Source: a virus
Taxonomy: Duplodnaviria > Heunggongvirae > Uroviricota > Caudoviricetes
DNA length: 23,006 bases
Virus record (IMG/VR): IMGVR_UViG_2617270967_000008
Direction: 5' to 3' (one strand)
Under the pieces are notes generated by a model, which worked only from the letters and a program-made list of their open reading frames with translations, made no database searches and was not told where the DNA came from. Made by a program: the position numbers and the translations under genes. Positions 14,134-19,909 of the stretch are shown here, piece after piece (the stretch's first letter is position 1; each line of letters starts with the position of its first letter).

Positions 14134-14165
14134 CCCGCCCGCCACTCACTGCGGGCTTTTTTTTG
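14134..14165 (+). terminator. Plus-strand hairpin followed by T8
   Basis: CCCGC-cactcact-GCGGG then TTTTTTTT on the + strand; the opposite orientation to the surrounding genes. Confidence 0.5.
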
Positions 14166-14171
14166 CCCATA

Positions 14172-14199
14172 GAAAAGCCCCTCCGGAGAGGGGCTTTTT
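14172..14199. terminator. Bidirectional rho-independent terminator
   Basis: AGCCCCTC-cgga-GAGGGGCT flanked by AAAA and TTTT. Confidence 0.65.
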
Positions 14200-14439
14200 A
14201 CAGTGGTAGTGTAGACAATTTTGCATGGTGCCGGGTGCCTCCCGGTGAGTTCAGTATCAGCACCTGAACCCGCACAGAAAGGATAAGGGTCGGTGACAAA
14301 ACACCAGTTGCTGATTGCCCCTCCGCACAGGGGGATTCACCATGCCAGTTTCTTTTAACAAACTCCCCGCAAACCAGACAACAGTCAACCGCCTGAATTG
14401 TGAGGTATTTAAAAATTTCAACGGGTAACTGATACCCTG

Positions 14440-14613
14440 CTAATCGCCTGATGCTTTCTTTTTCAGCAACGGGAAAGCAACAACCACCACACCCGCCACC
14501 AGCACACCGTCAGCCAGCACTGACATTATCCGGCTGCTGAAGTCCACCATCACCACCATCACTACCAGAAACAGCAGGAGCGCAACCACAGCCAGACGCA
14601 TTTTTACCGTCAC
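14440..14613 (-). CDS. Small two-TM hydrophobic peptide (~57 aa) translationally coupled to the TerB-like gene
   Basis: GTG 14613..14611 overlaps the TerB stop (GTGA) with GGAGA 7 nt upstream; an ATG lies at 14601; own translation MRLAVVALLLFLVVMVVMVDFSSRIMSVLADGVLVAGVVVVAFPLLKKKASGD. Below the ORF-track size cutoff. Confidence 0.45.
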   Translation of the reverse strand: MTVKMRLAVVALLLFLVVMVVMVDFSSRIMSVLADGVLVAGVVVVAFPLLKKKASGD

Positions 14614-15041
14614 AGATGATTCTCCAGACGAAGGCCCAGAACACCGGCAATCTCTTCCAGCACCTTGCGCTCTTCCGGCTCTATTTCGCCGTCTGCTTCG
14701 GCAATGGCCACCGCCACATCCAGCACGTCTTCCGCTTCACGCGTATCGTGTTTCACATCCTCGATCTCACGTAACGCCGCTCGACGACCAATTTTAAAGT
14801 TCGTATCCAGCTGACCGATAATGGTTGCGCTAATCGCATTAATTTCTGACGTAAACGCGGACAACGCAGGCTGGTTACGCAAGACCTGCTCGATCTTCGC
14901 TTTCTCTGAAGCCTCACATTCACCATCTGCATAGGCCACCAGATAGGCAGCATTAATAACCGCCTGTGCCAGATCACGTTTCTCAAACTTTTTAATTTCC
15001 ACTGCCGCTCGGCGGGCTTTTTTACCAAAAATACCAAACAT
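14610..15041 (-). CDS. TerB-domain (tellurite-resistance TerB-like) protein, cargo at the stx-equivalent position
   Basis: Two ADG-containing helix pairs (AAYLVAYADGECEASEKAKI and VAVAIAEADGEIEPEERKVLEEIAGVLG) typical of TerB; start at ATG 15041 (MFGIFGKK) with AAGGAA 8 nt upstream. Confidence 0.7.
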   Translation of the reverse strand: MFGIFGKKARRAAVEIKKFEKRDLAQAVINAAYLVAYADGECEASEKAKIEQVLRNQPALSAFTSEINAISATIIGQLDTNFKIGRRAALREIEDVKHDTREAEDVLDVAVAIAEADGEIEPEERKVLEEIAGVLGLRLENHL

Positions 15042-15181
15042 CGTGACGTTCCTTTGGGTGGGTGAGCCAACGCCCGGGAGCGATCTGCCCACAGAGAAAG
15101 TCACACTGACCACTCCGTAAGCTCACCCCCGAAAGGCTCTGTGGTTGATATGCGCCGGGCGTGGCGCGGATACAAAAAAGG

Positions 15182-15210
15182 CCCGCAAAAGCGAGCCGGG
15201 AAAAATAAGT
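15182..15210 (-). terminator. Terminator after the tRNA cluster
   Basis: Minus-strand GGCUCGC-uuuu-GCGGGCC (one G-U pair) followed by UUUUUUGU. Confidence 0.55.
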
Positions 15211-15211
15211 C

Positions 15212-15288
15212 TGGCGCGTTGTACTGGATTCGAACCAGTGACCGATTGCTTAGAAGGCAATTGCTCTGTCCGGCTGAGCTAACAACGC
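15212..15288 (-). tRNA. tRNA-Arg (anticodon UCU)
   Basis: Hand-folded cloverleaf: acceptor GCGTTGT/ACAACGC, D-arm GCTC/GAGC, anticodon loop CTTCTAA, T-arm ACTGG-TTCGAAT-CCAGT, discriminator G, encoded CCA. Confidence 0.85.
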
Positions 15289-15304
15289 AGGATACAGATA
15301 ATGA

Positions 15305-15378
15305 ACCGCCTTCGGGGATCCGAACTCCGCGCAACCAGCTTCGAAGGCTGGCGCTCTTTCCTGATGAGCTAATGGCGG
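15305..15378 (-). tRNA. tRNA-Arg-like (anticodon UCG) with non-canonical features; possibly degenerate
   Basis: Hand fold: D-arm GCTC/GAGC, anticodon arm CCAGC-CTTCGAA-GCTGG; T-loop TTCGGAT with one A-C mismatch in the T-stem; acceptor 6/7 paired, starts C1-G72, no encoded CCA. Confidence 0.5.
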
Positions 15379-15385
15379 TATGTGA

Positions 15386-15461
15386 TGGTGGCCCTTGCTG
15401 GATTTGAACCAGCGACCTGGCGATTATGAGTCGCTCGCTCTCACCACTGAGCTAAAGGGCC
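15386..15461 (-). tRNA. tRNA with anticodon CAU, resembling E. coli tRNA-Ile2 (ileX-like) rather than tRNA-Met
   Basis: Hand fold: acceptor GGCCCTT/AAGGGCC, anticodon loop CTCATAA, T-arm GCTGG-TTCAAAT-CCAGC, encoded CCA; overall resemblance to ileX as recalled. Confidence 0.8.
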
Positions 15462-15489
15462 GAGCCAAAAAATAATAATCAGATGAAAA

Positions 15490-16203
15490 TCAATAATCAA
15501 GCCCTTGCCTGGATACATATCTGTCTGGCGGGAAGCCATAATAGCGGTGAAATACAGAAATAAAGTAGGACCTGCTTGAATAACCGCATTTTTCTGCTAT
15601 AGCCTGTCCATATCCATGCCGGGAACATAACATATTTACAGCAACACGCATCCGCTCTTCCAGCAACAAGCGACTGAACATGCCCCCTTCATTTTTCAGT
15701 TTTGTCTTTAACAAACTCTCACTCATATGCAACTGTAGAGCAATCGCACAAAGCGTCCAGCTTGCTGATATATCTGTCTGAATTATCGCCCTGACTTTGG
15801 CACTTATGCTGGATAAACATCCACTTAAAAACAATGACATCCGTTCATCTGTTTCAAACAGAGACAGGCAGGCCATCATAAGAAACATATCCGTGGCCTC
15901 TCCGGAAAATCCCTGGCTGGTAATTAAAGCCGCAGCCAACGCAGGATTGTTGGGTTCCAGCAACAGGTAAAGCGGAATGTCAGTCAGACGAGTCCTCGTC
16001 AGCTTATGCTGACTTTCCAGATATTGACTTACGACGGATTCGCTTATATCGACAATTTTAACTTTGCCATAATGCATAAGGAAAAGCTCCCTGATGCATT
16101 TGGTGGCCAGAACAACTGAGCCTGGCTTAAGTGACAACGTATCCTTTTCAAGAAAAATATTAATTGGGGAGCAAACCATGATAACTGAACAGACAACAGC
16201 CAT
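15490..16203 (-). CDS. AraC/XylS-family transcriptional regulator (AppY/EnvY-like; prophage regulatory cargo)
   Basis: C-terminal double-HTH (...LLKTKLKNEGGMFSRLLLEERMRVAVNMLCS...AEKCGYSSRSYFISVFHRYYGFPP) resembles EnvY/AppY; N-terminus MAVVCSV like AppY MDYVCSV; AT-rich. Confidence 0.85.
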   Translation of the reverse strand: MAVVCSVIMVCSPINIFLEKDTLSLKPGSVVLATKCIRELFLMHYGKVKIVDISESVVSQYLESQHKLTRTRLTDIPLYLLLEPNNPALAAALITSQGFSGEATDMFLMMACLSLFETDERMSLFLSGCLSSISAKVRAIIQTDISASWTLCAIALQLHMSESLLKTKLKNEGGMFSRLLLEERMRVAVNMLCSRHGYGQAIAEKCGYSSRSYFISVFHRYYGFPPDRYVSRQGLDY

Positions 16204-16760: not shown

Positions 16761-17582
16761 CTATCGCGTTACCCTCTTTAACTGCCGCTCCGCCCATGCC
16801 TCTTCAATGTCAAACCGAACCACCAACGTATCGTAAAAGCGTTTCACTGATTTTTTCCACGTATCAAGCGTGATAGCACTCGTCACTTTGCATATGGCAT
16901 TAAATGCCTCCGTTGATGGTAGTCTTTCACAGCCACGACCACCACAACGCTGGCAGTCTCTGATAACAGGCATACCACGTTTTACCGACTCTTCACGATG
17001 AATGGCGACACCACGCCCACGGCAATCCTTACAGGCGGTGGAAACCTCACCCTTTCCGCCACACTCCGGACAGGCAACTTTTACCACCTCCCTGACTTTT
17101 TTCCATTCTTCCCAGTAAGACGGATACACACCTTTCGTACACTTTGCCCATACCGGCGGCTTACCATCCGGATACTGGACCTTGTTTGTAAAAACTACGC
17201 TTTCAATAAATTTTTCCCCATAGCAACAAGGGCACTGCTTTTTACTCGCTGCGCTGCGGGCATAATCCTCAAAAGCGTACGAAGCCATAATGCGCATCAC
17301 TACCGGTTTTATTTCTGCCGGGAGTTTTCTTAACGCCGCCACGCGATCACACCGACTGAGTGCATATTCTGTCAGCAATTCTGTTGCCCGCTCTCTGTCA
17401 TTCATACTAATGCCCATTTTACCAAGGAACGCAGAAAACCCCATCTCAGCCCGATTCTGTGTCATGCCCTGCGCGGCCATCACATCAGTGATACTCAGCG
17501 CATCTTTCGACGTTGAGGCCGATGCATCAGTCAGGCCGGGGGATTTTGGGGAGTAGTATTTCGGTAAATCTTCCAGTTTCAT
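16761..17582 (-). CDS. Q: Late-gene antiterminator Q (lambda Q family)
   Basis: Alignable to lambda Q at the N-terminus (YSPKSPGLTD...DVMAAQGM), zinc-binding cysteines, and C-terminus (TLDTWKKSVKRFYDTLVV...LKRVTR); 273 aa with insertions. Confidence 0.85.
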   Translation of the reverse strand: MKLEDLPKYYSPKSPGLTDASASTSKDALSITDVMAAQGMTQNRAEMGFSAFLGKMGISMNDRERATELLTEYALSRCDRVAALRKLPAEIKPVVMRIMASYAFEDYARSAASKKQCPCCYGEKFIESVVFTNKVQYPDGKPPVWAKCTKGVYPSYWEEWKKVREVVKVACPECGGKGEVSTACKDCRGRGVAIHREESVKRGMPVIRDCQRCGGRGCERLPSTEAFNAICKVTSAITLDTWKKSVKRFYDTLVVRFDIEEAWAERQLKRVTR

Positions 17583-19462: not shown

Positions 19463-19618
19463 TTACTCCTCAGGTTCGTAAACTGTGAAGACAGCGACCT
19501 CCGTCTGGCCGGTTCGGATTCGTACCTCGCAGAGGTCTTTCCTCGTTACCAGTGCCGTCACTATGACGGTTAAACAGATGACGATCAGGGCGATTAACAT
19601 CGCCTTTTGCTGCTTCAT
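19463..19618 (-). CDS. hokD: Hok/Gef-family type I toxin (HokD-like, 51 aa)
   Basis: MKQQKAMLIALIVICLTVIVTALVTRKDLCEVRIRTGQTEVAVFTVYEPEE is near-identical to HokD as I recall; AAGGAG RBS; an upstream in-frame ATG gives a mok-like extension. Confidence 0.85.
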   Translation of the reverse strand: MKQQKAMLIALIVICLTVIVTALVTRKDLCEVRIRTGQTEVAVFTVYEPEE

Positions 19619-19909
19619 AGCCTGCTTCTCCTTGCCTTTCGGCACGTAAGAGGCTAACCTAGATTTGCCGTTCATAGATTGAGCCTCAGATTAATGTTAA
19701 GCGTCTTGCAGGACGCGTAATGTTAACTGGGGCTTTTCTCTATCTGCCTTTTGGTATTCATGCCTGAGACAGATAGCCTCAAGCACCCGCAGCAATTCTA
19801 CTTAACTATCCTTTCCCCGCAAATCGTTTTTATCCCCAGCGACAAATCGAATACACCACCAGCGCCACCGCCATTGCGATCCCTACCGTTGTGAATGCCT
19901 CAGGCCAGG

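Follow-up and report, generated by a model that had tools for sequence, protein, structure and literature searches.

A probably weakened tRNA-Arg(UCG) allele in the ileZ-argN-argO cassette of a lambdoid Escherichia prophage

Introduction

The closest described counterpart of the locus reported here is the ileZ-argN-argO cassette, a set of three tRNA genes that is a long-described and routinely annotated feature of Stx-type prophages and whose gene names reportedly come from the 1999 description of phage 933W. Gene order, spacing, anticodons and the position downstream of the late antiterminator gene Q are the same in phage 933W and Stx2-converting phages as in the DNA analyzed here, a stretch of 23,006 nt from an IMG/VR virus record (IMGVR_UViG_2617270967_000008), which as a whole is referred to below as the window. 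Genes for tRNA-Asn and tRNA-Thr lie downstream of Q in phages SfI, Sf6, ST64T and P21 as well, where they have been proposed to act as decoders for codons that the phages overuse (PMC3636060). These genes share their slot and proposed role with the cassette, but they encode different isoacceptors, have no sequence relationship to it and have not been reported as degenerate. For argN we found no experimental work in the literature searched, only this general precedent for tRNA genes downstream of Q.

Phage tRNA genes need not encode the 3' CCA. Phage T4 tRNAs without an encoded CCA mature in E. coli through RNase BN/Z and the CCA-adding enzyme, and to our knowledge E. coli's own tRNA genes all encode CCA. 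The window argN resembles the T4 genes in being phage-borne and CCA-less in E. coli, and its maturation would be possible in principle; in T4, however, the absence of CCA is a conserved native state, whereas the window argN lost its CCA through a derived C-to-T change, in addition to its other lesions.

Identity and distribution of the tRNA cassette

ARAGORN called three tRNA genes in the window and no others; they lie on the minus strand in the order CAU, UCG, UCU, with spacers of 7 and 13 nt between them (C1-to-A76 register), as in related loci. Their scores against Rfam RF00005 (gathering score 29) were 72.5, 44.7 and 70.1 bits, respectively. The features of the region, in minus-strand order, are:

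16761..17582, minus strand: late antiterminator gene Q (Pfam Antiterm, E = 5e-51; RefSeq "antitermination protein")
15490..16203, minus strand: AraC-type HTH regulator, between Q and the tRNA genes (Pfam HTH_AraC, E = 7.8e-12)
15472..15500, minus strand: sigma-70-like promoter TTGATT-17 nt-TATTAT (consensus match; the -10 element ends 10 nt before ileZ +1)
15386..15461, minus strand: ileZ, tRNA with anticodon CAU, PGAP tRNA-Ile (Ile2 type), 76 nt, encoded CCA (ARAGORN; Rfam 72.5 bits)
15302..15378 (ARAGORN 15303-15379), minus strand: argN allele, tRNA-Arg(UCG) (Rfam 44.7 bits)
15212..15288, minus strand: argO, tRNA-Arg(UCU), 77 nt, G73, encoded CCA (ARAGORN; Rfam 70.1 bits; named in phage records)
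15170..15197, minus strand: intrinsic-terminator-like hairpin GGCTCGC-TTTT-GCGGGCC followed by TTTTTTG, directly after argO
14610..15113, minus strand: TerB-family protein, downstream of the tRNA genes (Pfam TerB, E = 9.9e-16)

Two open reading frames that overlie the tRNA genes (15141-15407, plus strand, 88 aa; 15101-15334, minus strand, 77 aa) are almost certainly spurious.

A preliminary description of this sequence had placed the three genes, correctly, between the AraC-type gene and the TerB module, in the position where Stx phages carry ileZ-argN-argO. The relationship goes beyond position, as the cluster is 93-94% identical to the corresponding part of the Stx2a_WGPS and Stx2a_1447 phage records, which name ileZ, argN and argO; on this sequence match, the three genes are the known ileZ-argN-argO cassette of lambdoid (Stx-type) Escherichia prophages. 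The outer two genes (CAU and UCU) had been said to fold cleanly, and both have perfect stems and an encoded CCA.

Of 5426 complete E. coli genomes, 3061 have a match to the 371-nt cluster region, at a median of one place per genome and a maximum of 14, which amounts to 7670 copies altogether, and the RefSeq/PGAP labels at these loci read tRNA-Ile, tRNA-Arg and tRNA-Arg. It also matches 289 phage records, mostly of Stx-converting phages, several of which use the names ileZ, argN and argO. A scan of one genome per species returned six loci, namely three from Escherichia (E. coli, E. albertii and an Escherichia sp.), two from metagenome-derived bins that carry the cassette and one unrelated chance match (L127); these six loci gave neither a deeper phylogeny nor a clue to the origin of argN.

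Genomic context

The tRNA region is the late region of a lambdoid prophage. Based on Pfam searches and the RefSeq annotation of a 99.7% identical locus (L001), the minus-strand order is Q, a small ORF, the AraC-type HTH gene, the three tRNA genes, TerB, DUF3927, an STnc100 match, a SASA-family esterase, the lysis cassette and terminase. Synteny in L001 is the same as in the window (Q, tRNA genes, stx or accessory genes, SASA esterase, lysis genes). TerB and DUF3927, which follow the window cassette, lie where Stx phages carry stxAB; in one related locus (L122), stx2AB follows argO. Complete E. coli genomes cover at most 63% of the 23,006-nt window in one place, and the prophage is a mosaic that is not represented as a whole among complete E. 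coli genomes.

Several small RNA matches were recorded in the same DNA. A full-length STnc100 sRNA match (Rfam, 145.6 bits) lies at 14165-14374 on the minus strand, between DUF3927 and the SASA esterase; STnc100 adjoins the tRNA cassette in most related loci and occurs twice in L007 and L018. Matches to AgvB, an anti-GcvB sRNA, lie directly beside STnc100 downstream of the cassette in some related prophages (L028, 2840-2901; L011, 3051-3110), and the window itself has no AgvB match. A full-length match to the sok antitoxin RNA (112.4 bits; 19613-19788, minus strand) overlaps a 70-aa ORF (19463-19675, minus strand), and together they presumably form a hok/sok-type toxin-antitoxin module in the prophage early region.

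Structure of the window argN allele

In the Rfam register, the window argN starts at C1 (15378) with C1-G72 as its first pair. The anticodon UCG is at 15344-15342 and the T-loop UUCGGAU at 15324-15318, with G58 at 15320 and an A at position 59 (15319) that is private to the window allele. Two mismatches interrupt the stems, A52·C62 in the T-stem (15326/15316) and A6·A67 in the acceptor stem (15373/15311). The discriminator is U73 (15305), followed by UCA (15304-15302) in place of CCA, while the neighboring genes encode CCA after A73 or G73. All features listed for the middle gene in the preliminary description (anticodon UCG, T-loop TTCGGAT, T-stem mismatch, C1-G72 and no encoded CCA) are present in the sequence; the acceptor-stem mismatch and U73 are additions to that list.

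Of the 21 standard cloverleaf pairs 19 form, A6·A67 and A52·C62 being the two that do not; canonical alleles of the family form all 21. The allele also departs from the conserved T-loop pattern T54-T55-C56-R57-A58, as position 58 is G. A58 is near-universal in tRNA, where it forms the T54-A58 reverse-Hoogsteen pair, and it is present in 28 of 38 indel-free argN alleles. According to the Rfam alignment and the ARAGORN drawing, the invariant U8, A14, G18-G19, A21, U33 and G53-C61 are retained, and the anticodon loop is intact (C32 U33 U34 C35 G36 A37 A38). E. coli ArgRS recognizes A20, C35 and G36 or U36 as identity elements, with an A73 or G73 discriminator as a minor determinant. A20 (in the D-loop AUCAGGAAA, the A after G18-G19), C35 and G36 are all present in the window argN; the purine discriminator is not, its place being taken by U73, which is invariant across the argN family.

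The ARAGORN drawing of this allele shows an 8-bp acceptor stem that begins at A(-1). We do not regard this as a tRNA-His-like or tRNA-Sec-like feature, since it is a register shift caused by the loss of CCA and is seen only in CCA-less alleles; for sister alleles in which CCA is preserved, ARAGORN uses the C1 register. Rejection of the middle gene by tRNA predictors had been proposed as the outcome that would count against it, and this is not what we observed, as the gene passes ARAGORN, Rfam (E = 1e-06 within the window) and PGAP.

Variation of argN across 120 cassettes

To compare alleles, we collected 120 cassettes from IMG/VR, using the ileZ T-arm and the argO D-arm as anchors so that argN itself did not bias the sample. 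The argN consensus of these cassettes, CCGCCATTAGCTCATCAGGATAGAGCGCCAGCCTTCGAAGCTGGTTGCGCGGGGTTCGAGTCCCCGATGGCGGTCCA, forms all 21 pairs and ends in U73-CCA, and its T-loop reads TTCGAGT or TTCAAGT, with A58 in both. The family shows essentially no variation at C1-G72, U73, A(-1) and A20 or in the anticodon arm, and C1-G72, U73 and A(-1) are common to the window argN and the argN of Stx2 phages. The C1-G72 start, like U73, thus characterizes the whole family and is no flaw of the window copy, so that of the non-canonical features attributed to the middle gene, G58, A52·C62 and the lost CCA stand, together with A6·A67, as damage of its lineage while C1-G72 does not.

By our tally of the allele table, argN is fully canonical in about 39 of the 120 loci. 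Recurrent variation in the canonical alleles is confined to the D-loop, the variable loop, R57 and switches between G-C and G-U, as would be expected if purifying selection acts on the tRNA. CCA is encoded by argN in 114 of the 120 loci; the end is UCA in four cassettes including the window, and CTA in one more allele.

The window allele is part of a sub-lineage that comprises 24 of the 120 loci, all of which have A6·A67, A52·C62 and A58G, each uncompensated. Extra changes within this sub-lineage are G10T, G50A, C74T and G59A, of which the window argN carries C74T (giving UCA) and G59A; compared with the family, these lesions are derived. Variable sites within the sub-lineage number seven in argN, two in ileZ and two in argO. 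The Stx2a-phage argN is imperfect in another way, with A51·C63 and G·U pairs but with A58 and CCA kept, unlike the window argN with its A6·A67, A52·C62, G58, A59 and UCA. The exact 77-nt window argN is absent from the 5426 complete E. coli genomes, in which its best match has one mismatch, and G59A is absent from them as well. Within one to three mismatches of the window allele there are 829 genome records, and one canonical allele is found exactly in 146 records.

Elsewhere argN has been broken repeatedly and independently, in different ways. The commonest single type, found in 31 of the 120 loci (L010, L041, L004, L038, L128 and others) and also in the E. coli species-representative genome, has the anticodon arm replaced by unrelated sequence: the arm reads AGACGACACGATAACAGGGTTGTTGG, the T-loop reads GGCGGGT and a poly-G run varies in length, while the acceptor and D arms are kept. 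No predictor calls this type a tRNA. In four loci (L011, L015, L051 and L056) the anticodon arm is deleted, leaving a relic of about 66 nt to CCA (98 nt between the anchors) beside an intact ileZ and argO. Further damage includes acceptor-stem C·A mismatches (GGCAA) and frameshifting indels. At the argN position of PPompW phages (L123, 2652-2727) lies a gene annotated as tRNA-Lys with anticodon UUU, C33 and a shortened, crippled D-stem, which is called by ARAGORN and scores below the Rfam threshold.

The indel-free argN alleles have a nucleotide diversity of 0.080, compared to 0.011 for ileZ, 0.046 for argO and 0.18 for the spacer, and an identical ileZ allele is present in 106 of the 120 cassettes. 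As measured by these values, turnover of argN is much higher than that of ileZ, and argN is the least constrained of the trio. The argN alleles are 94% identical on average and contain no double-sided compensatory changes, the family being too shallow for covariation; beyond register specificity, the count of such changes speaks neither for nor against the structure. The cloverleaf register nevertheless pairs 95.9% of the cells in argN alleles, compared to at most 53% when the register is slid. One compensatory double change was seen in the T-stem of argO (CACTGG...CCAGT to CAGTGG...CCACT, about 8 of the 120 loci), and none in argN.

Rfam scores and predicted folding

Canonical argN alleles score 54-58 bits, the window lineage 43-45 bits and the Stx2a-phage allele 43 bits, and the window argN is 12-14 bits below the canonical alleles. 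None of the tested representatives of the replaced-arm, deleted-arm, GGCAA-acceptor and "Lys" types reaches the Rfam threshold. Scores of the neighboring genes were 72.5 bits for ileZ in 12 of 12 loci tested and 63-71 bits for argO.

Nearest-neighbor folding placed the window argN cloverleaf 8.0 kcal/mol above the ensemble free energy, with the T-arm refolded in the lowest-energy fold, whereas in canonical alleles the cloverleaf is the lowest-energy fold and lies 2.6-4.4 kcal/mol from the ensemble; since the cloverleaf is not the lowest-energy fold of ileZ and argO either, this comparison is only relative and supportive with regard to argN damage.

Expression signals and codon use

Although the related loci differ in what lies upstream, with 32 different contexts, ileZ is preceded at a distance of 9-10 nt by a TTGNNN-17-TATTAT motif in 117 of 118 of them, and a terminator-like hairpin with a T-run follows argO in 75 of the 118. 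With its own predicted promoter, three tRNA genes and a terminator, the cassette looks like an autonomous unit, and the bracketing signals suggest that it may be transcribed on its own and not only from the Q-dependent late promoter.

Codon use was counted in the minus-strand ORFs of the window with greedy ORF calls and not with transferred annotation, as no complete E. coli genome covers enough of the window (at most 63% in one place). Per 1000 codons, these calls gave 7.4-7.9 CGA, 12-15.5 CGG, 5.9-9.3 AGA, 5.2-9.3 AGG and 7.4-10.3 AUA; the values for E. coli K-12 are about 3.6, 5.5, 2, 1.2 and 4.4, respectively. Rare-codon use in the window is thus roughly 2-6 times that of K-12, which fits the classical role of such cassettes in rare-codon supply. 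A U34-containing tRNA-Arg could serve both CGA and CGG.

Discussion

From its place between Q and the accessory and lysis genes, the cassette would supply decoders for codons that are rare in E. coli and commoner in the prophage. AUA would be read by the lysidine-modified CAU tRNA (ileZ), AGA and AGG by the UCU tRNA (argO), and CGA and probably CGG by the UCG tRNA of canonical argN. We consider that the window argN is a weakened or dead copy of this decoder, with a probability of roughly 60%: the acceptor A·A, the T-stem A·C, the lost A58 and the broken CCA would each weaken it, and it would be carried along beside two intact neighbors. On the allele comparison, the non-canonical appearance of the middle gene would mostly be lineage-specific decay of argN. 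The preliminary description had left the choice between a specialized rare-codon tRNA and a decaying one, and both halves apply, to different objects: the family consensus is a clean tRNA-Arg(UCG), and the window copy bears derived lesions. With tRNA pseudogenes this copy shares uncompensated mismatches, a lost invariant T-loop base and a lost CCA; unlike them it is accepted by every tRNA predictor and has its anticodon arm intact, so that early-stage pseudogene is at most what it may be called.

Several observations speak against decay. The window argN is still called a tRNA by three independent predictors, ARAGORN, Rfam (44.7 bits; gathering score 29) and PGAP; its anticodon stem-loop and A20, C35 and G36 are intact; single stem mismatches are tolerated in some tRNAs; viable Stx2a phages also carry an imperfect argN (43 bits, A51·C63); and the damaged lineage has persisted and not been deleted, as the 829 records within one to three mismatches indicate. 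Such points would be met by a functional rare-codon tRNA-Arg(UCG) that is transcribed with its neighbors, trimmed, given its CCA by the host, charged by ArgRS and used to read CGA (and CGG), the deviations of the window allele being tolerated idiosyncrasies. The conserved promoter and terminator that bracket the cassette, the roughly 2-3-fold enrichment of CGA and CGG in the window ORFs, the wide spread of the allele lineage and the restriction of canonical-allele variation to loops and G-C/G-U switches, as under purifying selection, are consistent with that account. It has to accommodate, however, four or five uncompensated changes that all go towards weaker structure and include the near-universal A58, a score 12-14 bits below that of canonical alleles, lesions that keep accumulating in this lineage while ileZ and argO stay constant, and the lack of compensatory double changes anywhere in the argN family. 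We hold a functional window argN to be the less probable outcome.

Retention of a degenerate argN for something other than decoding seems improbable to us. Such a gene could serve as processing punctuation, at which RNase P or RNase E would release ileZ and argO, or as a decoy for tRNA-Arg-cleaving toxins or defense nucleases. The acceptor stem, D-arm, A(-1) and U73 are conserved even in alleles with a replaced or deleted arm, the ileZ-argO spacing is kept within about 98-125 nt, and many hundreds of E. coli genomes still carry a degenerate argN next to an intact ileZ and argO. Yet conserved ends are equally expected from recent common descent (94% mean identity), some alleles damage the acceptor stem as well (GGCAA), and the length variation of poly-G in the replaced-arm type looks like drift. 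That the middle gene might be a chance tRNA-like match or an annotation artefact, as its score well below those of its neighbors could suggest, is refuted by the E-value of 1e-06 within the window, by the pairing of 95.9% of cells in the cloverleaf register, a value that drops to 53% or less in slid registers, and by clean cloverleaf homologues at the same position in dozens of loci; we give it almost no weight. A weakened or dead window argN remains the reading that we prefer.

Beyond annotation hygiene the finding matters little: "tRNA-Arg" calls at the argN position span everything from textbook genes to relics, with a clean argN in roughly one third of the sampled cassettes. Counts of prophage-supplied CGA/CGG decoders in E. 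coli are likely to be overestimates, since argN calls include relics. An active canonical argN would provide E. coli with its only U34 decoder of the CGN box, as we know of no other, and it may be relevant to the expression of CGA/CGG-rich prophage and virulence genes, which is an old idea.
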